Position numbers and translations under genes: made by a program | IMG/VR virus record: IMGVR_UViG_2923323785_000003 | Strand: one strand, 5' to 3' | Source of the DNA: a virus | Lineage: Duplodnaviria; Heunggongvirae; Uroviricota; Caudoviricetes | DNA: 14,772 nt | Shown: one piece after another, positions 1 to 14,772 of the stretch | Layout: every line of letters begins with the position of its first letter | Numbering within the stretch: the first letter of the stretch is position 1 | The notes under the pieces: model-generated | The model's input: the letters and a program-made list of their open reading frames with translations, nothing else | Database searches by the model: none | What the model was told of the DNA's origin: nothing

Positions 1-19
1 CTACTTGATAAATATTAAA

Positions 20-1315: not shown

Positions 1316-1334
1316 TAGTTAGTGTGGCTTTTAG

Positions 1335-1586
1335 TCAAGTAAGATGACGTCTTGGTCTCGCTGATGCCTGGCGCTCAATCCAGCGATCAATTTCTTCCAG
1401 GTTGTAAAAGCATGGACTGTTATCCCATGGCATACCGTCATGAGCGACATGCTTATATTCCCTTCCTTCCATAAACGATTTTTCCCGGGCCTTTTTTAAC
1501 GTACCTTTTTTTATTCCTTTCAGCGCAATTAACTGCTCTTCGGATACCCATTTGCCGGGAGAGACAATCATGATTACTTCGCTCAT
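1335..1586 (-). CDS. Excisionase-like small DNA-binding protein (Xis / YdaQ-type)
   Basis: 83-aa ORF directly upstream of int on the same strand; contains a GREY..H motif recalled from Rac/P22-type excisionases; position is canonical for xis. Start codon choice (1586 or 1571) is uncertain. Confidence 0.6.
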   Translation of the reverse strand: MSEVIMIVSPGKWVSEEQLIALKGIKKGTLKKAREKSFMEGREYKHVAHDGMPWDNSPCFYNLEEIDRWIERQASARPRRHLT

Positions 1587-1658
1587 CGATTTCTTTATCT
1601 CTTACATCAGACGAGCGCCGGTTGCAGAATACCAGTCACAACCGGCGACAGTTGAACA

Positions 1659-4136
1659 TTAAGAATCAGCCTGACTCGGGATCAGTTTTTGCCAGATAAC
1701 TGAAACGTATTTTGCCTGGTAACGGGCGTCATCAAGTGCATTATGGCGCTCACCTTCGAATGGAATAGCCGTTCTGGGATCGAAGTCTATGGCTTTCCCC
1801 AGCTCAACGATTGTGCGTACATCGCGATCGTTGTAGTAACGCCACGGGCAGGGGATCCCCTGCCGTTCGTATGAACGGCGCAAAATCGTGTTGTCGAAGT
1901 TGGCTCCATTTCCCCAGACCTGAACAAAAAATTCACCGGAGTTTTCGTCGATAAATTCCCGCAATTGTAACAGTGCATCATCTAACGGGATTTCATCGGT
2001 CATAATGGCAGATTGCGCTTCGCGTGATTGCTTAAGCCACCATTTAATGGTGTCCCGATCAATGACTCCGCCAGCAGTTTCCAGATCGATAGTCTTACTA
2101 AATTCCGGTCCCATATCTCCGGTTTGCGGATCGAAAAATATTGCACCTATTGAGATGATCGGGGCATCAGGATTTTTTCCCATGGTTTCAAGGTCGATCA
2201 TTAGATGGTCACACGTCCTGCTGGTGGATGTGATTTCGTGATGACCGTTCACCTTAATTGAGTGATCTGCCGTCTCGCCAGTTTCATTATCGCTATTGTG
2301 ATGCTGATTGCCGCCAGTGTTCTCCTTGTGTGGATGTTCAGCGCCTTCCATTTCCTCCGGATCATCTTCCTGAACTTCAACCTGATACTCTTCATCGAAT
2401 GTTTCTTGGTATGTTGCGTCGCCCATCACCGCGCCACAATCAGGGCAGTTGCCGCCGCCGGTCTGACCGCAGGCGGTGCAGACTTTTTCCACTTCCTGTT
2501 GCGCCACTGGTTCAGGCTGTTTCGTTTCTGGCTCGTTTTGTAACGCATTTGGGCTGTTTTGTTCCGCTTTTTGGTAGTTCCGTTCCGATTCATGCTGGTT
2601 CTGGTTCACAGAATCGCGGGTCTGGATCCCCTTAACCCATTTCGGATCATTCGGGTCACTAATCCCTTCAACAAATTCACCACGTGATGCAGCAAGCAAC
2701 TTATCGGCGTCAGGCTGGCTGATATTGGCTGCCTGCATAATTTTGTTTACTTCGTCAGCGGTAACTTTTATCGGCTCTGGTTGTTCTGAATCTTCAGCGG
2801 TATCTACATTTTGCGGTAAGCCCGTGTATGTGCCATTTTTTCGGGCAAAATATTCTTCTTTTGTGATTTCAGTGGCGCCAGCAGCCAGTGCCTTATCCAG
2901 ACCAGAAAGTTTGTTTGCGCGACCGTATTTTTCTCCGTCCTTATCTGCGAAGAGGAAATAGAACGGCCCCTCACGCTCTACAGATGGTTCAGCTTCCGGC
3001 GCGGTTTCATTTTTTGGGATATCAGATACCTCAGTTTCCACTGCATCAGTTTGTGTTTCTGATGACTGGAGAACATCAACAGTGCCCAGGTCTGTTTCTT
3101 CATTCTCAAACACGCCCTTTGTCGTCAGGTATTCGCAGATATATTTGTTCAGTGCTACGGGATCTTTGTGAATGTCGATCGGACGCTCACGGACAAGGCC
3201 AAAAATAGTTTGGCGGTCGTAGCGAAGGGCATCAGGCTGTTTGCGCATTGATGCCGAGATACGCTTCCAGTCTTCGCGGTCGTTGTCGATAACTTCTTTT
3301 TTTGCCCAGCGATGGATGCTGCCGTCAATGTTTCCGGCATCCACATCACCAGGCCAGAGAGCGTAGGCCAGTTCGTCATCCAGTGTTTTCCATGTCTGCT
3401 TGTATTCGCGATGAATGGCAGCAATGACCGGGCTGATTTTTCCTGTTGAATTTTCAGTGTACTGTTGATTGGCTCTGGCTCTGGCGCGGGCGAGATCAAC
3501 AACAGACGTGTATTTTCCGGTTTCCTTGCGTTCACCTTCGCGACGTTTTTTCCAGATGCGCATCTCTGTCTGAATTTCGGGCCATTTAGCACCAGGAATA
3601 CATTTATGCTTAACCCACCCAATGGCGTGCAACTTAAGCTCCGGATACATGGCGTTAACTTCTGGCATTTTCATCAACGCTTCAACGATATGTCCGTCGA
3701 ATGTTGCCATGTCTTCCTGCAACAATTCCTGTGCGCTAATAACCATATCAACGGTGATGTTTTCACATGTGTCGAACTTAACCATGACAGCGTTCTGTAC
3801 TTCAGGGGCCAGCTTGTCAAAAGTGACGTTCATCGGATCGGATTCAGTCTCAACCGGGACAAAAGAAGCAGACTCCTCATCCCAGCGGTTTTCCTGCATA
3901 TATTCAGCATCCCATGAATCGAGGGCAGGGCGGGGTATGCCAGGTTTATCCTCGCAGATAATAAATTTATAAGCGCAGTCCTGAGCAGCCGGATAATGTT
4001 CCAGGAACTGCCAGTGAAATTTTGCTCGAGCACGGCGTTCGTCGCCAGCTTCAATGGCTGTGGCTACAGCCACCGCGCCTTCTCCCCTTGTTGCCAGTTC
4101 GTCAGGAATAGCGGCGCAAATAAAGACTTTACTCAT
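1659..4136 (-). CDS. Prophage exonuclease (RecE-like, often annotated exodeoxyribonuclease VIII) with C-terminal DEDDh (DnaQ-like) 3'-5' exonuclease domain
   Basis: 825-aa ORF. Last ~180 aa (nt ~1700-2210) carry DEDDh motifs: DLETMG (Exo I), NGANFD (Exo II), HNALDDARY (Exo III). Central Cys4 cluster CTAC...CPDC (nt ~2436-2480) followed by an acidic low-complexity linker. Segment LLAASRGEFVEGISDPNDPKWVKGIQTRD matches my recollection of Rac RecE. Lies between xis and the dicB-type operon. Confidence 0.85.
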   Translation of the reverse strand: MSKVFICAAIPDELATRGEGAVAVATAIEAGDERRARAKFHWQFLEHYPAAQDCAYKFIICEDKPGIPRPALDSWDAEYMQENRWDEESASFVPVETESDPMNVTFDKLAPEVQNAVMVKFDTCENITVDMVISAQELLQEDMATFDGHIVEALMKMPEVNAMYPELKLHAIGWVKHKCIPGAKWPEIQTEMRIWKKRREGERKETGKYTSVVDLARARARANQQYTENSTGKISPVIAAIHREYKQTWKTLDDELAYALWPGDVDAGNIDGSIHRWAKKEVIDNDREDWKRISASMRKQPDALRYDRQTIFGLVRERPIDIHKDPVALNKYICEYLTTKGVFENEETDLGTVDVLQSSETQTDAVETEVSDIPKNETAPEAEPSVEREGPFYFLFADKDGEKYGRANKLSGLDKALAAGATEITKEEYFARKNGTYTGLPQNVDTAEDSEQPEPIKVTADEVNKIMQAANISQPDADKLLAASRGEFVEGISDPNDPKWVKGIQTRDSVNQNQHESERNYQKAEQNSPNALQNEPETKQPEPVAQQEVEKVCTACGQTGGGNCPDCGAVMGDATYQETFDEEYQVEVQEDDPEEMEGAEHPHKENTGGNQHHNSDNETGETADHSIKVNGHHEITSTSRTCDHLMIDLETMGKNPDAPIISIGAIFFDPQTGDMGPEFSKTIDLETAGGVIDRDTIKWWLKQSREAQSAIMTDEIPLDDALLQLREFIDENSGEFFVQVWGNGANFDNTILRRSYERQGIPCPWRYYNDRDVRTIVELGKAIDFDPRTAIPFEGERHNALDDARYQAKYVSVIWQKLIPSQADS

Positions 4137-4229
4137 TTTGTTTGAACCTCATGACAGATTTAAGGATGAACAAATCCCTGCCATTGCTGGCATATAAGAA
4201 TGAAACCGGATATTTATTACGGAACTGTT

Positions 4230-4421
4230 TTAAAGACCTGCCGGGATTTCGATATTATCCTGGTGAATAACTTTATCGACCGGGTAACAGTTACCGGGAA
4301 TTTTCTGTTCGGTTGCTGCAGTCATACACTCCTGCATTGTCCTGTGAACACTGACTGCAATATCAACTGGCTCTCCGGAAACAAGAAAAACTGTCAGAAC
4401 AAGCGCAAATGCTGAATTCAT
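4230..4421 (-). CDS. ydfD: Small membrane protein, YdfD-like (63 aa; N-terminal hydrophobic helix)
   Basis: Internal Met of the 81-aa ORF with an AAGGA Shine-Dalgarno about 8 nt upstream. Its ATG overlaps the stop of the upstream gene (ATGA), suggesting translational coupling. N-terminus MNSAFALVLTVFLVSG is hydrophobic. Length and sequence match recalled Qin YdfD. Confidence 0.6.
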   Translation of the reverse strand: MNSAFALVLTVFLVSGEPVDIAVSVHRTMQECMTAATEQKIPGNCYPVDKVIHQDNIEIPAGL

Positions 4422-4606
4422 TGTGCACATCCTTTTGGCATCAGACGTAAACGAGCCAGCATTGAAACAATGCATATTTTATTTAATAGCTCCCGTTCTT
4501 GTTTTCTCTTGTTAATGGCATCTTCAGTAAATACAGGGTTACTGATAGTGACACCAATTTCAAAACAACCTTCAGACGTATTAACGTTTGGTAATAACGT
4601 TTTCAT
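4418..4606 (-). CDS. dicB: Cell-division inhibitor DicB (62 aa)
   Basis: Internal Met of the 97-aa ORF with a GAGGA Shine-Dalgarno 7 nt upstream. Sequence MKTLLPNVNTSEGCFEIGVTISNPVF... matches recalled E. coli DicB. Lies immediately downstream of the DicF sRNA, as in the Qin dicB operon. Confidence 0.75.
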   Translation of the reverse strand: MKTLLPNVNTSEGCFEIGVTISNPVFTEDAINKRKQERELLNKICIVSMLARLRLMPKGCAQ

Positions 4607-4780
4607 TATCGCGTCCTCAACAATGAATTTTGTGATGCAGTGCCTGGTGCCTCCAGGTGACGTTAACCAGTTAACAATTAACGCCGGATACAGAGAATCC
4701 ACCCATAACACTGTTTTTGGTTTTAACTGTTCCGCGTGCGCTTCGCCGCATTCACCGCATCACAAGATTCACTTTAAAAA

Positions 4781-4833
4781 CGGCGGCAGAGCAGTCACGG
4801 AGTAAAACTGATACCGCCAAACGTCACCAGAAA
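4781..4833 (-). ncRNA. dicF: DicF small regulatory RNA (ftsZ-targeting sRNA of the dicB operon)
   Basis: Reverse complement of 4781-4833 reads TTTCTGGTGACGTTTGGCGGTATCAGTTTTACTCCGTGACTGCTCTGCCGCCG followed by a T5 run, which matches my recollection of the 53-nt DicF sequence and its terminator. Sits just upstream of dicB on the same strand. Confidence 0.75.
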
Positions 4834-5092
4834 ATTGATAACAGAGGGCGTTGCAGCGGGGTTGTCACTTAAGCGTATGGTCAACCTGACAACTCGGTGT
4901 CCTCAACGGGGAAGGAATAACCCCGCCATACTTACCGCCGCGCCATTTCGCGGATTGCCACAACCGGAAGCGCACGGTCGAATTAAATTTACCGACACCG
5001 TACAGTTAGACGAATTTCGCCGTGCGCTTTCGTGTTGTGTGCCTGCTTTTAACCACGTCAGGCGAGGTGGTATCCTTAAAATCACCACAGTT

Positions 5093-5668
5093 TTAAGGAT
5101 TCATTAAGCAATGTCGCAACCACCAATAAATCCGCTTAAGAACATGAAAATTGATTACTGGTATAAAGAGCTTACAGTTGTTGGCGCTGCGTTGTTTGTC
5201 TTTAATGGAACGTCTTTTTTTGACAGATATCCCGTTGTTCCATTGGGTTTTTTGTCCTCCGGCATCTTTTTTATTGGTTTGGGGGAGTGGATTAATCACC
5301 CTCTCAAAGTGAGATTTATTGGTCCTGGGGTTTGGACTCGTGGATATAATCGTTCTTCGTGCGCACTCGGCATCATCTTCGACATACTTGGTTGTTTCCT
5401 GATTATTACAGGAGTCGTCAAGTTCTTCTGATGTAAAACCGCAAATGGGGCACGTAACGGGAATTTTGAAAAGCGTTTCTCCGGGTTCCAGAACAAAATT
5501 TTCTGCGGTCTGATTTTGCTTCTCATATTTGTGCTCCGCGTCATTGTGAGAGCACATTCTTATTCTGAGTGCCTGTTTAAACTCACTGAAGCTGAGAGCT
5601 TCTTCGCCTTCGGCAAGGCCTTCGAAGTATTCTTCGTAAGCCTTTTCCATGATTGTGTCGAAATCCAT
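5093..5668 (-). CDS. Acidic small protein with CxxC zinc-ribbon-like motif (YdfB-like N-terminus); C-terminal extent uncertain
   Basis: Start MDFDTIMEKAYEEYF at 5668 with a GGTGA Shine-Dalgarno-like sequence; one nt after the stop of the upstream gene. First ~85 aa look protein-like (acidic, CPICGF motif). The remaining ~105 aa are low-complexity and lie exactly antisense to a plus-strand membrane-like ORF, so they may be an antisense shadow. Confidence 0.45.
   Translation of the reverse strand: MDFDTIMEKAYEEYFEGLAEGEEALSFSEFKQALRIRMCSHNDAEHKYEKQNQTAENFVLEPGETLFKIPVTCPICGFTSEELDDSCNNQETTKYVEDDAECARRTIISTSPNPRTNKSHFERVINPLPQTNKKDAGGQKTQWNNGISVKKRRSIKDKQRSANNCKLFIPVINFHVLKRIYWWLRHCLMNP
5111..5431 (+). 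CDS. Putative small inner-membrane protein (3 predicted TM helices), encoded antisense within the leftward operon; alternative to the 3' half of the 5093-5668 ORF
   Basis: 106-aa ORF with three hydrophobic segments (LTVVGAALFVF, VVPLGFLSSGIFFIGLG, CALGIIFDILGCFLIITGVV). Weak ribosome-binding site. Position and opposite orientation resemble sieB in the Rac prophage. Confidence 0.3.
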   Translation: MSQPPINPLKNMKIDYWYKELTVVGAALFVFNGTSFFDRYPVVPLGFLSSGIFFIGLGEWINHPLKVRFIGPGVWTRGYNRSSCALGIIFDILGCFLIITGVVKFF

Positions 5669-5669
5669 A

Positions 5670-5825
5670 TCACTCACCTGAGTTTCTTTCCAGCCAGCGA
5701 CGGGCACCATTTTCGGTTTTAAACGTTTTGCTTTTGGTATACGTCATCGCGGTGAACGTGCCGTCCTGGTTGGGGAACACGCCACATACCAGAGATTCGC
5801 TGTTGCCAAGATCGATAGTATCCAT
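5670..5825 (-). CDS. ydfA: Small protein YdfA-like (51 aa), first gene of the leftward operon
   Basis: Internal Met of the 69-aa ORF with a GAGGT Shine-Dalgarno 5 nt upstream. The 51-aa length and position right downstream of the repressor gene match YdfA (Qin) and YdaF (Rac). Confidence 0.6.
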   Translation of the reverse strand: MDTIDLGNSESLVCGVFPNQDGTFTAMTYTKSKTFKTENGARRWLERNSGE

Positions 5826-5905
5826 GCTGACCTCATTTCCCCTTAACGCCGGGGTAGCGGAACTGTTTGCTGAGAACACCGTGCGGTGTCTTGATGGAAA
5901 TTAAT

Positions 5906-5955
5906 TTAGAATAATCTAACATGATAGGCAAGTGTTTTTTGTTAGGTTAGTCTAA
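5906..5955. promoter_or_regulatory. Left operator/promoter region: two TTAG-N6-CTAA inverted-repeat operator-like sites (5906-5919, 5942-5955) upstream of the leftward dicB-type operon
   Basis: Sequences TTAGaataatCTAAC and TTAGgttagtCTAAC, each a 4-bp inverted repeat with a 6-bp spacer, in the intergenic region between the repressor gene and ydfA-like. The same motif recurs twice in the dicA-dicC intergenic region. A candidate leftward sigma70 promoter (TTGCCT, 17 nt, TAAATT on the minus strand) overlaps site 1. Confidence 0.5.
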
Positions 5956-5993
5956 CAAAAAGAGTGAGCGCAACTAATCACTTGAAAAGAATG

Positions 5994-6401
5994 TTATTTT
6001 ATTGATTTATTTTTACGCGCTTTAAGCATTTCTTCGAAGAGTTTGTTGAAGTTTTCTACTCTTGCGCGCATTTCAGACAGCAAGGCTTCCTGCTCGGAAG
6101 ATGGAAGAGCATCGAATAATTCGATCAATTCTTTGTGGTTGGGAGTTAGCTCTGTTTCCACATGAAGTTCTTGTGCAGGCACTGGTGCCTTGTCTTCATC
6201 ACCAAACATTAGCCATGTAGGTGAGCACTTCAGAGCATCCGCTAAAGCAAACAATCGTTTTCCGACTGGCTGGGTTTCGTCTCTTTCCCATTGTGAAATT
6301 GTGACGTGAGCAACTCCAGCGAGGCGCGCAGCTTCTCGTTGTGTTAAGCGTAATTCTTTTCGTCGCGCCAGAACTCGCTGGCCTAGGGTTCTTGTATCCA
6401 T
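5994..6401 (-). CDS. dicA: DicA-like HTH (XRE-family) prophage repressor, cI analogue without a peptidase domain
   Basis: 135-aa ORF with an N-terminal helix-turn-helix (LTQREAARLAGVAHVTISQWERDE). C-terminal ...SPTWLMFGDEDK...ELIELFDALPSSEQ...EMRARVENFNKLFEEMLKAR closely matches recalled DicA, which is also 135 aa. Divergent from a DicC-like gene. Confidence 0.9.
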   Translation of the reverse strand: MDTRTLGQRVLARRKELRLTQREAARLAGVAHVTISQWERDETQPVGKRLFALADALKCSPTWLMFGDEDKAPVPAQELHVETELTPNHKELIELFDALPSSEQEALLSEMRARVENFNKLFEEMLKARKNKSIK

Positions 6402-6403
6402 AG

Positions 6404-6466
6404 TTAGGTAATTCTAATTTTTCTTGACTTAGGTATCCCGCGCACAATAATGTTAGAAAAGTCTAA
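6404..6466. promoter_or_regulatory. Right operator/promoter region between divergent dicA-like and dicC-like genes: two TTAG-N6-CTAA sites (6404-6417, 6453-6466) flanking a rightward sigma70 promoter (-35 TTGACT 6424-6429, -10 AATAAT 6446-6451)
   Basis: Same inverted-repeat motif as the left operators (TTAGgtaattCTAA, TTAGaaaagtCTAAC). Promoter hexamers are near consensus with a 16-nt spacer. DicC start at 6479 is preceded by GAGGGGG. Confidence 0.55.
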
Positions 6467-6478
6467 CAAGAGGGGGCT

Positions 6479-6709
6479 TTGATGCTTAAAGTTGACGCAA
6501 TTACTTTTTTTGGCAGCAAAACAAAGCTTGCCAATGCCGCAGGAGTGAGACTGGCAAGTGTTGCTGCTTGGGGGATACTGGTTCCTGAAGGTCGCGCGAT
6601 GCGTCTACAGGAGGCATCTGGCGGGGAGCTTCAGTATGATCCCAAAGTTTATGACGAATATCGTAAGACGAAGCGGACGGGGCGGTTGAACAATGAAAAT
6701 CACTCCTGA
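6479..6709 (+). CDS. dicC: DicC-like transcriptional regulator (Cro analogue)
   Basis: 76-aa ORF divergent from the repressor gene. Segment VPEGRAMRLQEASGGELQYDPKVYDEYRKTKR matches recalled DicC; same length as DicC. Confidence 0.8.
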   Translation: MMLKVDAITFFGSKTKLANAAGVRLASVAAWGILVPEGRAMRLQEASGGELQYDPKVYDEYRKTKRTGRLNNENHS

Positions 6710-6986
6710 ACAGGCTCGTGAGGCTCTGGATGCCTGGATATGTCGACCAGGAATGACACAGGAGCAGGCGACGATATTAATCACTGAAGCATTCTGGGCT
6801 TTGAAAGAGCGCCCGAACATCGATGTTCAGCGTGTCACATATGAAGGTGGCGCGGTTGATCAGCGAGCGCTTAGCGTTAATCGAGTGAAGATATTCGAAC
6901 GCTGGAAGGCTATCGACACCAGGGATAAGCGTGAAAAGTTCACAGCGCTAGTGCCTGCAATTATGGAGGCTACCGTCACTGGATAA
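6693..6986 (+). CDS. Hypothetical early-region protein (YdfX-like position)
   Basis: 97-aa ORF overlapping the dicC stop by 17 nt (operon-like), with protein-like composition. No recognised catalytic motif. Confidence 0.55.
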   Translation: MKITPEQAREALDAWICRPGMTQEQATILITEAFWALKERPNIDVQRVTYEGGAVDQRALSVNRVKIFERWKAIDTRDKREKFTALVPAIMEATVTG

Positions 6987-7061
6987 TCTCAGTCAGATTG
7001 CCTTACTCCGAACGCCCACCGCGTCCGTCCCGTACATTCCAGCAACGCATCTGGAGGTAAC

Positions 7062-7541
7062 GTGCGGGTATTACTTCGACCTGTTCTGGTACCGGAACTC
7101 GGGCTGGTGGTCGTTAAGCCGGGCCGTGAATCCATGCCGGTATTCCACAATACCCGGGTACTGGTGGAGCCGGAACCGAAAAGCATGCGTAATCTGCCGT
7201 CCGGGATCGTTCCTGCCGTTCGCCAGCCGCTGGTGGAAGACAAAACATTGCTGCCGTTTTTCAGTAATGCACGGGTAATTCGTGCTGCTGGTGGTGCTGG
7301 TGCATTGTCTGACTGGCTGTTGCGCCATATTAAATCCTGCCAGTGGCCACACGGCGATTATCATCACAGCGAAACCGTTATTCACCGTTATGGTACCGGC
7401 GCAATGGTGTTGTGCTGGCACTGCGACAACCAGCTGCGTGACCAGACATCCGAATCACTCGAGCAACTTGCTCATCAAAACCTGTCAGCATGGATGATTG
7501 ACGTCATCGGTCACGCAATAATCTTTCATGAAACGACCTAA
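7062..7541 (+). CDS. Hypothetical protein, possibly the C-terminal part of a DUF968/YdfU-like protein (GTG start)
   Basis: 159-aa ORF starting at a GTG with a GGAGG Shine-Dalgarno at 7054-7058. Preceded by a 75-bp non-coding gap where replication genes would be expected. Family assignment is tentative. Confidence 0.45.
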   Translation: MRVLLRPVLVPELGLVVVKPGRESMPVFHNTRVLVEPEPKSMRNLPSGIVPAVRQPLVEDKTLLPFFSNARVIRAAGGAGALSDWLLRHIKSCQWPHGDYHHSETVIHRYGTGAMVLCWHCDNQLRDQTSESLEQLAHQNLSAWMIDVIGHAIIFHETT

Positions 7542-7818
7542 ACGTCGCCGCTGGGTTAACGAGAAATACACTCGCTGGGTGAAGACACAGCCGTGTGCGT
7601 GTTGTGGTAAGCCAGCCGACGATCCCCATCACCTGATTGGTCATGGTCAGGGCGGAATGGGGACAAAATCTCACGATATTTTCACGCTACCGCTGTGTCG
7701 GGAGCATCACAACGAGCTTCATGCGGATCCGCTGGCGTTCGAAGAAAAGCATGGTTCTCAGGTTGATTTAATTTTTCGTTTTCTTGATCACGCCTTTGCA
7801 ACTGGCGTGCTTGGGTAA
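7528..7818 (+). CDS. Small Cys/His-rich putative zinc-binding HNH-like protein
   Basis: 96-aa ORF with CACCG...HH...LCREHHNELH motif pattern. Its start overlaps the stop region of the upstream ORF in a different frame. Confidence 0.55.
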   Translation: MKRPKRRRWVNEKYTRWVKTQPCACCGKPADDPHHLIGHGQGGMGTKSHDIFTLPLCREHHNELHADPLAFEEKHGSQVDLIFRFLDHAFATGVLG

Positions 7819-7830
7819 AAGAGGTGACTG

Positions 7831-8205
7831 ATGCTCATAGATTTGGTTTTACCTTACCCGCCGACGGTGAACACTTACTGGCGACGCCGTGGCAGCACAT
7901 ATTTTATCTCGGAGGAGGGAAAGCGTTATCGCCGGGCTGTGGCGCTTATTGTTCGCCAGCAGCGGCTGAAATTAAGCCTGTCCGGAAGGCTGGCGATAAA
8001 GGTGATTGCAGAGCCACCGGATAAGCGTCGTCGCGACCTGGACAATATCCTGAAAGCACCGCTGGATGCGCTGACGCATGCGGGAGTGTTAATGGACGAT
8101 GAGCAGTTTGATGAAATCAATATCGTTCGTGGTCAGCCAGTATCTGGTGGACGTCTGGGGGTGAAGATTTACCCCATAATGCATGAAGAGCAGGTCAAAA
8201 AATGA
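7831..8205 (+). CDS. rusA: RusA-family Holliday-junction resolvase
   Basis: 124-aa ORF with LPYPPTVNTYWR N-terminus and the RRRDLDNILKAPLDALTHAGVLMDDEQ motif typical of RusA (recalled E. coli RusA has RRRDLDN...KA.FDALTKAG...DD). GAGGTG Shine-Dalgarno upstream. Position before Q is typical. Confidence 0.85.
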   Translation: MLIDLVLPYPPTVNTYWRRRGSTYFISEEGKRYRRAVALIVRQQRLKLSLSGRLAIKVIAEPPDKRRRDLDNILKAPLDALTHAGVLMDDEQFDEINIVRGQPVSGGRLGVKIYPIMHEEQVKK

Positions 8206-9023
8206 AACTGGAAGATTTACCGAAATACTACTCCCCAAAATCCCCTTGCCTGACCGATGCATCGGCCTCAACGTCAAAAGATGCGCTGAGTATCACTGAT
8301 GTGATGGCCGCGCAGGGCATGACACAGAATCGGGCTGAGATGGGGTTTTCTGCGTTCCTGGGGAAAATGGGCATCAGTATGAATGACAGGGCGCGGGCAA
8401 CAGAATTACTGGCAGATTATGCACTCAGTCGGTGCGATCGTGTGGCGGCGTTGAGAAAACTTCCGGCAGAAATAAAACCGGTAGTGATGCGCATTATGGC
8501 TTCGTACGCTTTTGAGGATTATGCCCGCAGCGCAGCGAGTAAAAAGCAGTGCCCTTGTTGCTATGGGGAAAAATTTATTGAAAGCGTAGTTTTTACAAAC
8601 AAGGTCCAGTATCCGGATGGTAAGCCGCCGGTATGGGCAAAGTGTACGAAAGGTGTGTATCCGTCTTACTGGGAAGAATGGAAAAAAGTCAGGGAGGTGG
8701 TAAAAGTTGCCTGTCCGGAGTGTGGCGGAAAGGGTGAGGTTTCCACCGCCTGTAAGGATTGCCGTGGGCGTGGTGTCGCCATTCACCGTGAAGAGTCGGT
8801 AAAACGTGGTATGCCTGTTATCAGAGACTGCCAGCGTTGTGGTGGTCGTGGCTATGAAAGACTACCATCAACGGAGGCATTTAATGCTATATGCGAGGTG
8901 ACAAACCAGATAACACGCGCGTCATGGGAAAAAACAGTTAAGAAATTCTATGATGCGCTGGTGACCCGGTTTGATATTGAAGAAGCATGGGCTGAGCGGC
9001 AGTTAAAAAAGGTAACTAGGTAA
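8202..9023 (+). CDS. Late-gene antiterminator Q (QuuQ-like, with Cys-rich zinc-finger repeats)
   Basis: 273-aa ORF whose ATG overlaps the rusA stop (ATGA). Repeated CxxCxGxG-type motifs (CPECGGKG, CKDCRGRG, CQRCGGRG). Immediately followed by a candidate late promoter and intrinsic terminator, then tRNAs and lysis genes. Confidence 0.7.
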   Translation: MKLEDLPKYYSPKSPCLTDASASTSKDALSITDVMAAQGMTQNRAEMGFSAFLGKMGISMNDRARATELLADYALSRCDRVAALRKLPAEIKPVVMRIMASYAFEDYARSAASKKQCPCCYGEKFIESVVFTNKVQYPDGKPPVWAKCTKGVYPSYWEEWKKVREVVKVACPECGGKGEVSTACKDCRGRGVAIHREESVKRGMPVIRDCQRCGGRGYERLPSTEAFNAICEVTNQITRASWEKTVKKFYDALVTRFDIEEAWAERQLKKVTR

Positions 9024-9028
9024 CAAGG

Positions 9029-9056
9029 TTGATTTTTCCGGAATCTGTGGTAAATT
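9029..9056 (+). promoter_or_regulatory. Candidate late promoter (pR'-like) downstream of Q
   Basis: -35 TTGATT (9029-9034), 16-nt spacer, -10 TAAATT (9051-9056), followed about 50 nt later by an intrinsic terminator, as in lambda pR'/tR'. Confidence 0.4.
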
Positions 9057-9104
9057 CGTCATAACGATGGGCTTTTTATGCCTGACGTTAGAAGAGTTTC
9101 TACA

Positions 9105-9129
9105 ACCCGCCGCCGAGCGGGTTTTTTAT
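9105..9129 (+). terminator. Intrinsic terminator (tR'-like) read through under Q antitermination
   Basis: Stem ACCCGC / GCGGGT with 6-nt loop, followed by TTTTTTATT. Confidence 0.6.
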
Positions 9130-9166
9130 TGCGGAATTAATTACGGACCGTTATTATTCTGCTCAC

Positions 9167-9242
9167 GGCCCTTTAGCTCAGTGGTGAGAGCGAGCGACTC
9201 ATAATCGCCAGGTCGCTGGTTCAAATCCAGCAAGGGCCACCA
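9167..9242 (+). tRNA. tRNA with CAU anticodon, Ile2-type (ileX/ileZ-like; tRNA-Met cannot be excluded)
   Basis: 76 nt. 7-bp acceptor stem GGCCCTT/AAGGGCC, D-arm GCTCAGTGGTGAGAGC, anticodon loop CTCATAA, T-arm GCTGGTTCAAATCCAGC, 3' ACCA. Close to recalled E. coli ileX. Confidence 0.85.
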
Positions 9243-9342
9243 TCACAAACCGCCATTAGCTTATCAGGAAGAGCAGACGACGCGATAACAGGGTTGTTGG
9301 TGCGGGGGCGGGTCCCCGATGGCGGTCCATTATCGGTATTCA

Positions 9343-9419
9343 GCGTTGTTAGCTCAGCCGGACAGAGCAATTGCCTTCTAAGCAATCGGTCACTGGTTCG
9401 AATCCAGTACAGCGCGCCA
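9343..9419 (+). tRNA. tRNA-Arg (anticodon UCU, reads AGA/AGG)
   Basis: 77 nt. Acceptor stem GCGTTGT/ACAGCGC (one G-U pair), D-arm GCTCAGCCGGACAGAGC, anticodon stem ATTGC/GCAAT with loop CTTCTAA, T-arm ACTGGTTCGAATCCAGT, 3' GCCA. Confidence 0.85.
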
Positions 9420-9529
9420 TATTCATTCTTCCAGATTCCTTCCGGCAGAGCCTTATACTGAAATATACCTGGCTCAGGATCTTGTTGAAAATATTATATG
9501 TTTGTCAAAAATAAAAGTTCTGTCAAGTA

Positions 9530-9883
9530 TTGATTGAGTGTTTGTTATACCGTCTAATGGTTTTTTCAGCATTAAATATTTATCATTCATATGGTGTGGG
9601 TAGAGTGAATATTGATGAGGCGTCGGGGTGTTTCATCCTTAGGCAGCGTATTGATATAGTCAATGCAGCACGAGCAAAGGCCTTCAGCCGTTTGACAGTT
9701 TTGTTTTGTACTCCTGATCGTCTTTCGGGAAGAGACGTTATTATTCTGAATAGTGATGCTATACAGAGGGTTTGCGATGAGTTCATGGTTGCTAATTCAG
9801 AATTATTTGCTCTTGTTCAGGAGTACAACAGAATAGCCAGGACCTGTGGTATGGATGAACTTCGGATTACTCATCTGGGGTAG
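9530..9883 (+). CDS. Hypothetical protein (cargo ORF downstream of the tRNAs); start uncertain (TTG at 9530 or ATG at 9557)
   Basis: 117-aa ORF. C-terminal half looks protein-like; no convincing Shine-Dalgarno; no family recognised. Confidence 0.3.
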   Translation: MIECLLYRLMVFSALNIYHSYGVGRVNIDEASGCFILRQRIDIVNAARAKAFSRLTVLFCTPDRLSGRDVIILNSDAIQRVCDEFMVANSELFALVQEYNRIARTCGMDELRITHLG

Positions 9884-10357
9884 ATACATATCTGGATTAT
9901 CACCTGTTACGGTAAAAAGTTATTGCTTACTGTTTTTGTGAATGGCATTGCAGCAGCCGGATAATGTCAGTGCTGGCTGACGGTGTGCTGGTGGCGGGTG
10001 TGGTGGTTATTGCTTTCCCGTTGCTGAAAAAGAAAACGCCGGACTGTTAGCCGGGTATCAGTTAGCGGGAGAAATTTTTAAATACTTCACAATTCAGGCG
10101 GTTGACTGTTGTCTGGTTTGCGGGGAGTTTGTTAAAAGAAACTGGCATGGTGAATCCCCCTGTGCGGAGGGGCAATCAGCGAGTAGGTATATGGGATAAT
10201 CGCGGATTCAGGTGCTGGTACTGAATTCACCGGGAGGCACCCGGCACCATGCACTTCAATAGATTCTCTCCACATTATGGATATTCTTTCAGAATATCCC
10301 ACGCAGACTTTGTGTAAATGTTAACAAATGTGCGTTTTATTTGATCTGATTCGCTGT

Positions 10358-10387
10358 TTGAGCGTCCAAAACAACGGTATATATAAT
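10358..10387 (+). promoter_or_regulatory. Candidate sigma70 promoter for the first lipoprotein gene
   Basis: -35 TTGAGC (10358-10363), 17-18 nt spacer, -10 TATAAT (10382-10387), about 30 nt upstream of the start at 10417. Confidence 0.4.
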
Positions 10388-10416
10388 CCTTTACTATATG
10401 ACATATGTGAGGAAAA

Positions 10417-10845
10417 ATGGGTTTTCGTAGCGCATCAATTCTTACGTTGATTATTAGTGGGATTATTATCGGGTGCACTGATGCTGTATCGACAAATTAT
10501 CATGACCGTACATCATATTACTCCGATAAAGCAATAGAGACACAGTATGTGAGTTCATCTGAACGTACTTCTGATGTTAGTGAGGATATCCGTCTGTATG
10601 CCCATCAAATCAAGAGCGCCATCGAAAAACAGTTCGGGGATGCGAGTAAGTATTCAGGAAAAGAGTGTACACTGAGAATGCATATGGCCCCGAATGGCCT
10701 TCTACTGGAGGTTAAAAGAGAAAGTGGAGACCTCGATTTATGTCGTGAAGCGATGAATGCGATAAAGAATGCTGATATACCTGCCCCCCCTTCGCCGGAA
10801 GTATATAAAGTATTTCAAAATGGGGTGCTGGATTTTAAACCCTGA
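10417..10845 (+). CDS. Lipoprotein with C-terminal TolA domain-III-like domain
   Basis: 142-aa ORF with GAGGA Shine-Dalgarno. Lipoprotein signal peptide with lipobox IIGC. C-terminal ~87 aa (IRLYAHQIKSAIEKQFGDASKYSGKECTLRMHMAPNGLLLEVK...LCREAMNAIKNADIPAPPSPEVYKVFQNGVLDFKP) align with my recollection of the E. coli TolA C-terminus (...YAGQIKSAIESKFYDASSYAGKTCTLRIKLAPDGMLLDIK...LCQAALAAAKLAKIPKPPSQAVYEVFKNAPLDFKP). Confidence 0.85.
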   Translation: MGFRSASILTLIISGIIIGCTDAVSTNYHDRTSYYSDKAIETQYVSSSERTSDVSEDIRLYAHQIKSAIEKQFGDASKYSGKECTLRMHMAPNGLLLEVKRESGDLDLCREAMNAIKNADIPAPPSPEVYKVFQNGVLDFKP

Positions 10846-10995
10846 TATTTATTGTTTTGTAATAAACGGTTTCGGCTTAGGTTTGTTCTGACACAACTAC
10901 GGCACTGAGCTAAATTTAGCGGATAGTCAGCTCTGAGCCAGTGGCGGACGTAACAACTACTATTGCTGAGATTTTAATGGATTGAGGAGCAAGAA

Positions 10996-11391
10996 GTGGG
11001 ATTAAAGAAAATCGTTATGTTGACTTTTTGGGTCGGTTTTGTTGCGGGATGCACACCTTTACACCCTTCAGATTGCCACAAAACTACTGCTACAGGTAGT
11101 TGCAGTTCAGGACGCTGGGATGATCAGGATGAATGGGGGGCGCAAGCGCGGGGAATCAGAGCTGCAATTAATGCCAAACTTGATGAGCCGCATAACTGGA
11201 AAGGGAAAAAATGCAGGTTGCATATGGAATTCTCTCAGGATGGCACGGCGTTAAAAATATCTACCAGTAACGGTGATAAAGCCTATTGCGAAGCGATAAA
11301 GTCCGCAGCTCATAAAGCCAAATTTCCGGCCTTCAACAATCCGGAAGTCTACAGAGATTTTCAGAAATCTGGCTTTGACATGCGAGGTTAG
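10996..11391 (+). CDS. Second lipoprotein, diverged paralogue with TolA domain-III-like C-terminus (GTG start)
   Basis: 131-aa ORF starting at GTG with a GAGGAG Shine-Dalgarno 6 nt upstream. Signal peptide with lipobox VAGC. C-terminal region (KGKKCRLHMEFSQDGTALKI...YCEAIKSAAHKAKFPAFNNPEVYRDFQKSGFD) shares the two-Cys spacing and PEVY..FQ motif with the upstream paralogue. Confidence 0.8.
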   Translation: MGLKKIVMLTFWVGFVAGCTPLHPSDCHKTTATGSCSSGRWDDQDEWGAQARGIRAAINAKLDEPHNWKGKKCRLHMEFSQDGTALKISTSNGDKAYCEAIKSAAHKAKFPAFNNPEVYRDFQKSGFDMRG

Positions 11392-11516
11392 CTCTTCAAT
11401 TACTATATCTCATTCATAGCAAACTGACAGATTTGATGATGTTCTATATACGAAACCTGTGATGTCAAGTCTGAGCTAATACAAATAAACATAATATCAG
11501 AGAAATACATTTTATT

Positions 11517-11543
11517 AGCTCGCTACGGCGAGCTTTTTATATT
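11517..11543 (+). terminator. Intrinsic terminator closing the lipoprotein transcription unit
   Basis: Stem AGCTCGC / GCGAGCT with loop TACG, followed by TTTTTATATT. Confidence 0.65.
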
Positions 11544-11642
11544 GCATCGTCTCCAGCATATATATCAATTATGGCTCTGATTGATGTGTCTGGAAGCCTA
11601 CACATAATAACTATGCCATCCGTTCCGTGCGGAGGTGAGGCT

Positions 11643-11858
11643 ATGAAATCCATGGACAAAATTTCAACAGGCATTGCCTACGGCACCTCCGCAGGCAGTG
11701 CTGGCTACTGGTTTTTACAGCTGCTCGATAAAGTCACGCCCTCACAGTGGGCAGCAATAGGTGTGCTGGGTAGCCTGGTATTTGGCCTGCTGACGTACCT
11801 GACAAACCTTTATTTCAAGATTAAAGAAGACAAGCGTAAGGCTGCACGGGGAGAGTAA
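11643..11858 (+). CDS. Class II holin / pinholin of the S21 / EssQ / EssD type, with dual-start motif (MKSM)
   Basis: 71 aa from the ATG at 11643, preceded by GGAGGTGAGG. Sequence [71 protein letters not shown] closely matches recalled phage 21 S21 and E. coli EssD/EssQ holins. Confidence 0.85.
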
Positions 11859-11862
11859 TTCA

Positions 11863-12177
11863 ATGACTCAAAAATATGAACTGATTGTGAAAGGGATCCG
11901 CAATTTTGAGAATAAAGTTACGGTAACTTTAGCGTTACGGGACAAAAAACGCTTTGACGGTGAAATTTTTGACCTGGACATCTCGCTGGACCGTGTTGAA
12001 GGTGCCGCGCTGGAGTTTTATGAGTCAGCAGCCAGAAGGAGCATCAGACAGGTCTTCCTGGATGTTGCTGCCGGGTTATGTGAAGGGGACGAGCTGTTGC
12101 CAGAAACGCGCCCCTGTTCAGAGGCGCGGTATACCATAAAAATTAACAGTTCTGATAACTCGATTACGGGTTGTTAG
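11863..12177 (+). CDS. YdfR-like small protein (DUF1327-type) that follows the holin in Qin-like prophages
   Basis: 104-aa ORF 4 nt after the holin stop. Length and position match ydfR, which lies between essQ and the endolysin in Qin. Sequence identity is not confirmed. Confidence 0.55.
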   Translation: MTQKYELIVKGIRNFENKVTVTLALRDKKRFDGEIFDLDISLDRVEGAALEFYESAARRSIRQVFLDVAAGLCEGDELLPETRPCSEARYTIKINSSDNSITGC

Positions 12178-12232
12178 CTTTTTGCAGTTGGCTTTCCGGT
12201 ATCTTTCATTGGTAGCATCCTGATAAATATCC

Positions 12233-13174
12233 ATGAGCGCAAAAATCAAATACGCCCTGTCAGCTGCTGTTCTGGCGCTGATTGCTGCAGGCGCGTCTGC
12301 TCCTCAGATACTTGACCAGTTTCTGGACGAAAAAGAGGGTACCGGAGTCGGAAGTTGCCGGACCTTGCAGATGAAGGCGCATTACAGAAATGGTGGTCTG
12401 TTCTACCGTTCTTCAAGAGACGGTTATGGTTTTGAGGAAGACTGGGCAGAAGTTTATACCTCGAAAAATCTTCCACCAGAAAGCTACCCAGTCGGCGCAC
12501 CAATCCCGTGGCCATCAGATACCGTTCCGTCTGGTTATGCCCTGATGCAGGGGCAGACTTTTGACAAATCTGCCTACCCGAAACTTGCAGCCGCTTATCC
12601 GTCAGGCGTGATCCCTGATATGCGTGGCTGGACGATTAAGGGCAAGCCCGCCAGTGGTCGTGCCGTATTGTCTCAGGAACAGGACGGCATAAAATCGCAT
12701 ACCCACAGCGCCAGCGCATCCAGTACTGATTTGGGGACGAAAACCACATCGTCGTTTGATTACGGCACTAAATCCACGAATAACACTGGTGCGCATACCC
12801 ATAGTTTAAGTGGCAGCACGAATGCAGCTGGTAATCACAGCCATAGAGATGGCCGTCGATTTAACCCCAGTGTTTTTAAAGATACTTATCAATATGGTTA
12901 TACAAGCTCAGGTCAAAATACCTGGGGTGTGCAAGGCTCAGTAGGTATGTCTACGGGGGCGTTAGCTAATACCAGTACAGATGGTAACCATAGCCACTCA
13001 CTGTCCGGCACAGCAGCATCTGCAGGTGCACACGCACATACTGTCGGTATTGGTGCACACACGCACTCCGTTGCGATTGGTTCACATGGACACACCATCA
13101 CCGTTAACGCTGCTGGTAACGCGGAAAACACCGTCAAAAACATCGCATTTAACTATATTGTGAGGCTTGCATAA
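12233..13174 (+). CDS. stf: Side tail fibre protein, C-terminal receptor-binding portion (lambda orf-314 / StfQ-like; N-terminally truncated relative to full-length Stf)
   Basis: 313-aa ORF with [50 protein letters not shown] and repeated HxH motifs (HTHS, NHSH, HAHT, HGHT) typical of lambda/T4-type fibre tips. Stop overlaps the tfa start (TAATG). No Shine-Dalgarno, and it sits directly after ydfR-like, consistent with a deletion remnant. Confidence 0.8.
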
Positions 13175-13755
13175 TGGCATTCAGAATGAGTGAACAACCA
13201 CGGACCATAAAAATTTATAATCTGCTGGCCGGAACTAATGAATTTATTGGTGAAGGTGACGCATATATTCCGCCTCATACAGGTCTGCCAGCAAACAGTA
13301 CCGATATTGCACCGCCAGATATTCCGGCTGGCTTTGTGGCTGTTTTCAACAGTGATGAGGCATCGTGGCATCTCGTTGAAGATCATCGGGGAAAAACCGT
13401 CTATGACGTGGCTTCCGCCGACGCGTTATTTATTTCTGAACTTGGCTCGTTACCGGAAAATGTCACCTGGTTATCGCCGGAAGGAGAATATCAGAAGTGG
13501 AACGGCACAGCCTGGGTGAAGGATACGGAAGCAGAAAAACTATTCCGGATCCGGGAGGCGGAAGAAACAAAAAACAGCCTGATGCAGGCAGCGAATGAGC
13601 ATATTGCGCCACTTCAGGATGCTGTAGATCTGGAAATCGCAACGGAGGAAGAAAACTCGTTGCTGGAAGCCTGGAAAAAGTATCGGGTGTTGCTGAACCG
13701 TGTTAATACAACAACTGCACCGGATATTGAATGGCCAGTAGCACCTATAGGGTAA
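13174..13755 (+). CDS. tfa: Tail fibre assembly protein Tfa (lambda Tfa / TfaQ-like)
   Basis: 193-aa ORF. N-terminus [39 protein letters not shown] and C-terminus [24 protein letters not shown] closely match recalled lambda Tfa. Confidence 0.92.
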
Positions 13756-13840
13756 ATTCGTAATGATTACCTAAATACGTTATTCTTTTGTTCAAAAAGT
13801 GATTTTGCTATAGGTAGGGAGTATGTTCTTGGATTAAGAA

Positions 13841-13871
13841 TAAAAAATCGCCATGAAAGAGCTTCATGGCG
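13841..13871 (-). terminator. Intrinsic terminator oriented for minus-strand transcription, inside the AT-rich block
   Basis: Perfect 9-bp stem CGCCATGAA / TTCATGGCG with 5-nt loop. On the minus strand it is followed by ATTTTTTATTCTT; on the plus strand no U-tract follows. Confidence 0.5.
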
Positions 13872-14340
13872 AGTACATAAACGTACAAAATGTGATGAAA
13901 GTAGAGTGGCGTAAGCCACTATATTAAGATATGACAATAGCGAACAAAAGTAAATAACATTTTATGGACGTTTAATTGTTAATTATAAAAACTAGAGTGC
14001 CCGATATTGTTTATCTTGCTTTAAAATAATGTACTCAAACCAAATTTTTGAGCTAAAAGCTCAAATAATATAAATGCAATGATAATGTTTAATAAGACAA
14101 TTAGCTTGCTTTGTATTTTCATTTCGGAATACTGTTAAGTAACTTTGATGACCCTAACAATAGATCGGAATTTTCTTAGAGTCAATGGTCACTGTTTTTG
14201 TTTGCAAAGCAAATGTTTTGGTGGTTATAAGTTTTCCTAATATAGTCACCTATGCAACTTGTTCCGTGTGGAGATTAAAGGTTAAAATTTAATGCGAAGA
14301 TGGAATTATAATATATTTTTTTATAATTAATTTAACCTTA

Positions 14341-14440
14341 ACATCGTTGCTGGCGGCATGGAAGAAATATCGGGTCTTGCTGATATCGTGTTGGCACTTC
14401 CTTAGTGCGGTTATCGAATGGCCAGCTGTACCTGTGGGGT
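14341..14440 (+). pseudogene. Orphan 3' end of a second, diverged tfa allele
   Basis: Translates in frame as [30 protein letters not shown]-stop, paralleling the intact tfa C-terminus ([29 protein letters not shown]); about 80 percent nucleotide identity over the terminal ~90 nt. No upstream ORF. Confidence 0.6.
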
Positions 14441-14574
14441 AAAAACTTTATATGGATGCTATTTTTATAATAGCTGGTAAAAACTGGCCGAACTGAAATT
14501 CACTGTTGATAAAAAAGATGTGTTTGAGTGTATGTCATTGTTTTCTTAATGGAATCCACTAGAATGCAGCGAAT

Positions 14575-14772
14575 TTAAGAAGGTGGGTTTTTATTGGAAT
14601 ATAAACTACAATAATGCTCAACTCGTTCGTAGAATTGTTTTTTCTTATTTCTTGGAATGCTAACCATTATATGCATTATGGGGGCGATACTTCCTGATAA
14701 TTTACATGATGCATACATTGAAGCAATAAATTCAATATCATTGTCATCAAAGTTAAAGCTTTCTCCGTCCAT
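14575..14772 (-). CDS. Partial AT-rich ORF of unknown function running off the window edge
   Basis: 65-aa ORF whose first codon is the last 3 nt of the window, so the true start may lie beyond it. Low-GC codon usage unlike the prophage backbone. Confidence 0.3.
   Translation of the reverse strand: MDGESFNFDDNDIEFIASMYASCKLSGSIAPIMHIMVSIPRNKKKQFYERVEHYCSLYSNKNPPS

Follow-up and report, generated by a model that had tools for sequence, protein, structure and literature searches.

An unannotated YncL-like membrane-peptide gene candidate in the AT-rich accessory end of a Qin-type Escherichia coli prophage

The 14,772-nt stretch analysed here (IMG/VR record IMGVR_UViG_2923323785_000003, hereafter the window) ends in AT-rich DNA that follows the tail fibre assembly gene tfa, and our subject is an unannotated 33-codon open reading frame (ORF) on the minus strand of that DNA whose predicted product resembles the small membrane protein YncL. 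The chromosome of E. coli MB06101 contains the window at 100% identity, and there the RefSeq annotation locates a decayed Qin-type lambdoid prophage from rspB to ydfI/ydfJ. In strain ECC-1470 the last 1,017 bases of the window are found unchanged after an intact tail operon (J, lom, a 3.5-kb stf and tfaQ), and the truncated ydfJ that marks the right attachment site, attR, begins 0.72 kb past them. Given that attR lies only this far beyond the block, as the comparison of ECC-1470 with K-12 indicates, the AT-rich region after tfa forms the accessory end, equivalent to the lambda b region, of a cryptic lambdoid prophage of the Qin type.

The GC content is 0.322 across 13756-14772 and 0.291 across 13756-14343, against 0.467 for positions 1-13755, and the lowest-GC backbone windows of 1,017 and 588 nt reach 0.414 and 0.393, respectively. 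A preliminary description of the sequence had reported a very AT-rich block after tfa, which is borne out by its lying below every 1,017-nt backbone window, and had found no ORF of at least 60 aa for about 0.8 kb after the tfa stop, which is accurate for 13756-14574 on both strands, where the longest ORF is a 56-aa TTG ORF crossing a terminator. Its label of an ORF-poor block, however, fits at the 60-aa threshold and fails below it: at a threshold of 20 aa the conserved 33-codon ORF appears. The parts of the region are collected in Table 1.

Table 1. Parts of the region from tfa to the end of the window, with the evidence for each
Feature	Coordinates	Strand	Evidence
tfa, tfaQ-type tail fibre assembly gene, 193 aa	13174..13755	+	Pfam Caudo_TAP 2.3e-43, PHROG 105 2.4e-98, RefSeq tfaQ
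Block A, AT-rich (29% GC) moron-like module	13756..14343		Distribution, junction variants, GC
Intrinsic terminator: U-tract 13838-13847, 11-bp stem 13848-13872	13838..13872	-	Fold, pairing across haplotypes
Conserved distal 3' untranslated region: U-rich single-stranded linker 13873-13904, 6-bp hairpin 13905-13920	13873..13920	-	Identity, fold
Unannotated 33-codon gene, predicted YncL-like single-pass membrane peptide MKIQSKLIVLLNIIIAFILFELLAQKFGLSTLF	14021..14122	-	NCBIfam, BLASTP, pN/pS
Putative sigma-70 promoter TTGACT-17-TATTGT	14157..14185	-	Consensus match 9/12, conservation
Relic 1, last ~100 nt of an older tfa	14344..14443	+	Alignment to tfa, PGAP homologue, weak Rfam IS009
Block B, second AT-rich module, 32% GC	14444..14772		Distribution, continuation past the window
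Complete 65-aa orphan ORF, WP_001421370.1	14575..14772	-	RefSeq; no Pfam or PHROG family

A conserved 33-codon open reading frame in block A

The 33-codon ORF lies 35 nt downstream of the promoter match and 150 nt upstream of the terminator. For comparison we used a diverged copy from a Rac-site prophage of strain TUM12355, which preserves the whole arrangement (tfa end, block A and relic) at ~78-80% identity, within a set of eight versions of the small gene that includes the TUM12355 lineage and five further variants. The frame is undisrupted in all eight. Relative to the diverged lineage it has accumulated 12 synonymous and 7 non-synonymous changes, giving a ratio of non-synonymous to synonymous divergence (pN/pS) of 0.14 in frame; the two alternative frames give 0.42 and 5.6 (Fisher p = 3.6e-6). 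Eight indel events separate the two lineages, none of which falls within the coding sequence and one of which sits directly at the stop codon. Together, these findings show that the 33-codon ORF is under coding-type purifying selection. A hairpin that can be drawn inside the ORF does not survive in the diverged lineage, and the other short ORFs of block A, 14154-14249(-) and 14185-14292(+), were rejected as candidates because indels in that lineage break both; the former is annotated in phage PhiR70_1.

The peptide, MKIQSKLIVLLNIIIAFILFELLAQKFGLSTLF, has a basic N-terminus followed by a hydrophobic core at residues 7-24 (18 residues) with a mean Kyte-Doolittle value of 2.87, compared to 2.31 for YncL. 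When it was searched against NCBIfam, YncL (NF000537) was the sole family match (25.0 bits, E 1.3e-5), covering residues 1-28 of the 30-position model, and two further natural variants likewise matched YncL alone at 23.5 and 22.5 bits; for K-12 YncL the score is 68.6. Control searches with nine shuffles and the reversed peptide returned no family match at E <=10. Pairwise BLASTP to K-12 YncL with composition adjustment aligned 28 residues without a gap at 39% identity and 64% positives (E 2e-7), and the residues common to both include N12, L19, F20, F27 and G28, with a basic-Phe-Gly motif at 26-28. From these comparisons, the similarity to YncL appears to be specific rather than compositional and to extend along the whole peptide. 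YnfT of K-12 Qin was also considered as a homologue of the 33-aa ORF and discarded, as a BLASTP control gave no alignment.

YncL (K-12 b4598) is a 31-aa stress-induced inner-membrane protein, and the likeness lies in a length of about 30 residues, a basic N-terminus and a single hydrophobic helix. Its production leads to membrane depolarisation and nucleoid condensation (PMC12542507), and its induction by heat shock and minimal medium is credited to Hemm et al. 2010 in the citing passage of the same paper. The two genes nevertheless differ in several respects. The 33-aa ORF sits in a prophage accessory region as opposed to the chromosomal patD-yncL-ortT locus, the DNA of yncL has no evident similarity to block A when the sequences are compared by eye, yncL has the Shine-Dalgarno sequence AAAGGTGG where the 33-aa ORF has none, and the 33-aa ORF is followed by a long conserved 3' untranslated region (3'UTR); any function given to the peptide is assigned purely by analogy.

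The gene has left little trace in existing resources. Among the matches listed, no RefSeq genome has an annotated feature within block A, the exact peptide occurs as two metagenomic gene calls among 15 billion proteins, and a HMMER search of 1.84 billion representatives returned the ORF's own cluster and one frameshift variant. A full-text literature search for the peptide string found no paper. Phage mEp332 encodes an identical 33-aa peptide, and tblastn against phages gave no match despite this copy, for which the low-complexity filter is the likely cause. Judging from its sequence, block A appears to hold an overlooked small membrane-protein gene of a prophage-borne, YncL-like kind, a finding that is modestly new.

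Transcription signals and distribution of block A

Upstream of the ORF, the TTGACT-17-TATTGT match agrees with the consensus at 9/12 positions and predicts a 5'UTR of ~28 nt. Its -35 hexamer is identical in 7/8 variants and its -10 hexamer is kept or near-kept. Downstream, the terminator hairpin closes on a 3-nt loop and is followed by the minus-strand tail TTTTTTATTC, with no T-run on the plus strand; it sits 92 nt short of tfa on the minus strand, and the last 93 nt of the unit fold at -27.1 kcal/mol (z = -6.35). The strong minus-strand-only terminator proposed at 13841-13871 in the preliminary description is therefore real and can be placed on an 11-bp stem. Across 4 distinct haplotypes 95.5% of cells in the stem are paired, with one G-U to A-U change.

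Conservation along the unit is uneven. Identity between the lineages is 63-77% in the promoter and 5'UTR, 73-87% in the ORF and 53-67% just past the stop, peaks at 97% in 13851-13910, and drops to 53-77% past the terminator. The conserved island comprises the 6-bp hairpin, the U-rich linker and the terminator, and the single stem change in the 6-bp hairpin, C-G to U-G, preserves pairing. No compensatory double changes were found in the 3'UTR stems, where the four haplotypes offer two one-sided, pair-preserving changes only. No Rfam family reaches its gathering threshold for the 3' element, the best scores being MicC at 23.4 of 90 and Esr41 at 15.6 of 102. Two further sequence features were noted here. 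A perfect TATAAT at 13982-13987(-) within the 3'UTR, which reads TACAAT in the diverged lineage, could start a separate ~135-nt RNA with the same terminator, a weak indication in AT-rich DNA; and a 25-nt inverted repeat (76% complementary, 13905-13929 / 14235-14259) brackets the promoter and ORF, which we take as chance because the terminator falls outside it.

Of 5,426 complete E. coli genomes, 830 carry block A, as do three temperate phages (mEp332, ev099 and PhiR70_1; 4 phage records); K-12 Qin lacks it. It always lies directly after tfa, so that its left edge is the tfa stop, and its right edge falls within 14300-14335, where three different neighbours occur across genomes: relic 1 with block B (block B is found in 592 genomes, nearly all at >=98% identity), the sitABCD iron/manganese transporter ~240 bp after block A (variants L014, L015 and L017), and an IS1/AraC-regulator region. 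Since block A adjoins sitABCD in some genomes, the small gene there stands between tfa and known fitness/virulence cargo. Variant L015 is a visible recombinant between lineages. In mEp332, a sequence resembling the 3' end of ssrA (transfer-messenger RNA) lies ~280 bp after block A (L002 6860-6925) and presumably represents the attP core; on that basis, mEp332 would integrate at a site other than that of the Qin-type prophage.

These properties bring block A close to the phage morons (Juhala et al. 2000; Cumby et al. 2012, e.g. HK97 gp15; both as cited in bioRxiv 10.1101/2024.10.15.618418), which are likewise small autonomous units of deviant composition, and like them block A adjoins the tail genes of a lambdoid phage and is patchy among relatives. 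It has its own terminator, a deviant GC content (0.291 vs 0.467) and a patchy presence with sharp boundaries; as for an own promoter, TTGACT-17-TATTGT is a consensus match conserved in most variants. Compared with typical morons, the gene of block A is far smaller, and it is unannotated and convergent with the late operon, and its expression in the lysogen is presumed.

Proposed working of the unit and alternative readings

We consider it probable that the region is a layered prophage-end mosaic arising from tail-fibre swaps, in which block A is a YncL-like minus-strand moron. A sigma-70-type promoter near 14157-14185 would drive a minus-strand transcript of ~310 nt that encodes a 33-residue single-pass inner-membrane peptide and ends at the 13848-13872 terminator, and because the transcript would end there, transcription would be kept from running antisense into tfa. 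Transcription from this promoter would probably take place in the lysogen, as for morons. By analogy with YncL, the peptide may insert into the inner membrane and lower the membrane potential; it would presumably serve lysogen conversion or a stress function, and a benefit through stress tolerance, dormancy or exclusion is suggested by that analogy only. During lytic growth, Q-antiterminated late transcription would read antisense across the unit, since the hairpin would not halt it on the plus strand. The preliminary description had envisaged an untranslated RNA ending at the terminator. A purely untranslated RNA does not agree with selection on the ORF, and the terminator most likely ends the messenger RNA (mRNA) of a small protein gene, possibly alongside a 3'UTR-derived small RNA (sRNA).

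Several observations weigh against a translated, YncL-like gene and should be set beside those that favour it. The YncL score of 25.0 bits falls below the curated cut-off of 35 bits, and YncL was not recovered when the 33-aa ORF was used in the HMMER search of 1.84 billion proteins. Homologues outside E. coli gave no confirmed locus in a protein-pattern scan of genome contigs, and a DNA-pattern scan returned 7 matches, 0 of them enterobacterial, which is about the number expected by chance from a hand estimate. No Shine-Dalgarno sequence precedes the ATG. With only two well-diverged lineages, the selection test draws on few substitutions. Promoter matches are not enriched (4 found vs 6.1 expected), so that the case for the small-gene promoter is one of conservation, and the match is disrupted in variant L017. 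Finally, the 3'UTR is better conserved than the ORF, a hint that the RNA itself may matter.

This last point is the core of an alternative in which the functional product is an untranslated regulatory RNA of the Hfq type, ~90-135 nt long and either 3'UTR-derived or independent, whose linker pairs with host or phage mRNAs while the ORF is incidental. The 97% identity of 13851-13910 between lineages whose flanking sequence shows 53-80% identity, the succession of hairpin, U-rich linker, terminator and U-tail with its z of -6.35, stem changes that are all pair-preserving, the TATAAT (or TACAAT) hexamer, and a full-length, sub-threshold resemblance to MicC at 23 bits all speak for it, and Hfq-dependent Pas sRNAs inside lambdoid prophage tail regions provide a precedent (PMC8550237). 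Like the Pas/Esr41/STnc100 sRNAs of enteropathogenic and enterohaemorrhagic E. coli (EPEC and EHEC; PasA-D), the 3' element is short, terminator-ended, near lambdoid tail genes and opposite the late operon; it differs from them in lying downstream of a selected ORF and below every Rfam threshold. Identity with PasB, an Hfq-dependent EPEC prophage sRNA whose flanks often carry IS009 (2026 preprint), was rejected because in E2348/69 PP6 the PasB locus falls between tail genes I and J, and because the PasB probe sequence is absent from the window. We judge a regulatory RNA with an incidental ORF to be unlikely, given that it lacks compensatory double changes and leaves both the codon-level selection and the indel-free ORF unexplained, and that short identity islands also arise by inter-lineage recombination, of which L015 is an example. 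Peptide and sRNA are nonetheless compatible, as a dual-function RNA is possible. An extended form of this idea, in which a dual-function moron combines a depolarising YncL-like peptide (for superinfection exclusion, abortive infection or stress dormancy) with a 3' Hfq-binding sRNA for host genes, is carried by ~15% of E. coli and uses tfa ends as portable homology, seems to us quite unlikely.

A membrane peptide could also suggest a type I toxin-antitoxin system, with a 33-aa membrane toxin held off by a plus-strand cis-antisense RNA in the service of prophage stabilisation or abortive infection. In its favour are the small size, hydrophobicity and basic N-terminus of the peptide, the depolarisation seen when YncL is produced (PMC12542507), and a weak match to a promoter on the plus strand, at 13931-13960, that is directed into the ORF; the missing Shine-Dalgarno sequence also suggests restrained translation. 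Yet no plus-strand terminator or conserved antisense unit was found, and the diverged lineage retains the plus-strand promoter match in part only. The predicted 5'UTR of ~28 nt has no long folded leader of the kind seen in hok, tisB and ldr, the hairpin within the ORF does not survive in the diverged lineage, and evidence from toxin-antitoxin families or from PADLOC, which was not run, is absent. We consider this reading very unlikely. We regard as similarly remote the view that nothing here is functional and that the ORF, promoter match and hairpins are AT-rich by-products amid decaying junk and recombination debris of a dead prophage. The prophage has indeed suffered heavy deletion and contains pseudogenes and a lysozyme-stf fusion, the evolution of the 65-aa ORF is neutral, promoter-like sites are at chance level, and no block A gene is annotated in the genomes among the matches listed; against this, plaque-forming lambdoid phages carry block A too, the 33-codon ORF is under purifying selection with zero indels vs eight in its flanks, the YncL similarity is absent from shuffled controls, and the terminator is far stronger than chance.

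The preferred reading, a YncL-like minus-strand moron, would mean that apparently empty AT-rich intergenic DNA holds a conserved unannotated gene, carried by live temperate phages and by about 1 in 7 complete E. coli genomes. Peptides of the YncL type were recently shown to lower membrane potential (PMC12542507) and to push cells towards quiescence, and since they do so, a phage-borne YncL-like copy is a plausible lysogenic-conversion or phage-exclusion factor. In other respects this is an ordinary prophage end that offers neither an effector nor an invertase system nor a new mechanism.

Relics of tfa and the end of the prophage

Relic 1 aligns to tfa 13657-13756 in direct orientation as two blocks of 85% and 81% identity, separated by two compensating 1-nt indels and sharing the same TAA end, and forms a GC island of 51%. 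The diverged second copy of the last ~100 nt of tfa that the preliminary description had seen at 14341-14440 is thereby confirmed at slightly shifted coordinates and ~80% identity. In strain TUM12355 the homologue of relic 1 is called a frameshifted partial tfa by the Prokaryotic Genome Annotation Pipeline (PGAP). Block B continues ~330 bp past the window end to a second, more decayed relic, relic 2, also in direct orientation (MB06101, L003 ~23075-23198, ~300-430 nt beyond the window). Homology of relic 2 to DLP12 tfaD does not break off at the stop but runs 54 nt beyond it, as expected of a native tfa end, and relic 2 directly adjoins a 290-bp prophage end common to K-12 Qin. Rfam IS009 (RF02111, typed as a gene) scores a full-length 211.8 bits within tfa (13517-13715) and matches weakly in relic 1 (14328-14403); what this family describes seems to be the conserved 3' half of tfa genes and not a separate sRNA.

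The order tfa, block A, relic 1, block B, relic 2, the 290-bp Qin-shared block and attR in ydfJ is most simply read as a three-layer history, although the sequence of events is reconstructed from the present arrangement. An original tfa adjoining the attachment-site flank would have been overwritten twice from the left, each time by an incoming stf-tfa with its own downstream cargo, and each replacement would have joined illegitimately ~100-125 nt before the resident tfa stop. The relic and the adjacent 120 bp are near-identical between otherwise diverged lineages, and movement of cargo flanked by tfa ends through homologous recombination would fit this near-identity. Viewed in this way, the stacked tfa 3' relics would let one read how tail fibres (host range) were replaced one after another within a single prophage lineage.

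The preliminary description had interpreted the region as a recombination scar at a tail-fibre exchange hotspot, and the real relic 1, the older relic 2 and the three right neighbours of block A bear this out. Its further suggestion of foreign AT-rich cargo holds insofar as the DNA is accessory and missing from K-12 Qin, but it includes no effector and is followed by no cargo gene: from the tail fibre genes to attR we found no effector-type cargo, only the 33-aa ORF and the 65-aa orphan, and the prophage stops at attR in ydfJ, ~0.72 kb past the end of the window. Half of what had been named in advance as speaking against a cargo-bearing scar is also seen, as the block matches unannotated intergenic DNA end to end in 575 genomes with no cargo gene downstream. 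Its observations were largely right, and its reading as a scar with foreign cargo was half right.

Comparable arrangements exist elsewhere. In K-12 DLP12 (tfaD, ybcY' on the minus strand, a tfaX 3' fragment and appY), a full tfa is likewise followed by a ~0.8-kb insert with a minus-strand ORF, a direct tfa fragment and AT-rich cargo, and the relics described here align to DLP12 tfaD and tfaX at 69-83%; the insert content and breakpoints differ, however, and DLP12 has appY as real cargo where the prophage of the window simply ends. EPEC E2348/69 PP6 is a precedent with stacked tail-fibre fragments before nleA, which holds the equivalent position, whereas no effector is found here. K-12 Qin (tfaQ, pinQ, ydfK, ynfT, attR in ydfJ) occupies the same integration site, with a tfaQ that is 94% identical and the same last 290 bp (97% identical; "block C", the final stretch before attR). 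The whole interval from tfa to the last 290 bp has been swapped, such that block A, relic 1, block B and relic 2 stand where K-12 Qin has pinQ-ydfK-ynfT, and no pin gene is present here. K-12 Qin ynfT (L020 4891-5004, 37 aa) is itself a gene for a small hydrophobic protein in the same interval and orientation as the 33-aa ORF, and small membrane peptides may be recurrent cargo at this tfa-downstream hotspot.

The presence of pin beside tfa in K-12 Qin, Rac and e14, with pinQ of K-12 Qin exactly at this position, raises the thought that the second tfa end is left over from an invertible tail-fibre segment of the Pin/Gin type. We attach almost no credence to it: the tfa ends are direct rather than inverted, no recombinase gene lies between tfa and attR, and a search for invertase crossover sites found none in the region, the single weak match, at 8574, being at chance level. 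A Pin-type inversion system was accordingly rejected, and a search for a pin-type recombinase or crossover sites, which the preliminary description had proposed, came back empty on both counts.

The ORF at the window edge had been described as partial. It is instead complete, with 65 codons and an ATG formed by the window's last three bases, and corresponds to a RefSeq hypothetical protein. It has no Pfam or PHROG family, and its sole NCBIfam match, GlgS, is insignificant (E 0.037, 14 bits vs a cut-off of 105). A word-seeded search of 5.8 billion clusters, with limited reach to distant relatives, found only E. coli proteins of >=88% identity, several of the relatives being frameshifted. Relative to the 96.6%-identical contig L019, the ORF shows 2 synonymous and 6 non-synonymous changes and a frameshift, which equals the neutral expectation, and no terminator follows it. 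The 65-aa ORF is probably not a constrained gene, and with no family or distant homologues, neutral substitutions and frameshifted variants it was rejected as cargo.

Upstream of the AT-rich region, the MB06101 prophage carries, in order, integrase, excisionase, exonuclease, ydfD and dicB, then cI/cro-like regulators, rusA and an antiterminator, followed by two transfer RNAs, a holin, a lysozyme stump fused to the C-terminal part of the side tail fibre, and tfaQ. An Rfam scan of the window recovered DicF, STnc100 and both transfer RNAs. The STnc100 match (10116-10306) is full-length at 114 bits; common ancestry of this prophage sRNA family with PasD has been proposed (2026 preprint). The lysozyme-fibre fusion is a 313-aa ORF at 12233-13174 that joins, in frame, a lysozyme N-terminus (12233-12340 in the PGAP annotation) to the C-terminal part of the side tail fibre (12341-13174), the latter with a Collar domain and fibre repeats. 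The remaining lysis, packaging, head and tail genes appear to have been lost from the prophage through a single deletion. At the other end, the 290-bp prophage end contains a perfect hairpin, CCGCAGAACGTT / AACGTTCTGCGG, that could be a sib/tI-like element, and directly past the prophage end MB06101 has undergone an additional 2.2-kb deletion (L003 23538 vs L001 17783-20023), with which the ydfJ remnant and the 5' part of ydfI are gone.

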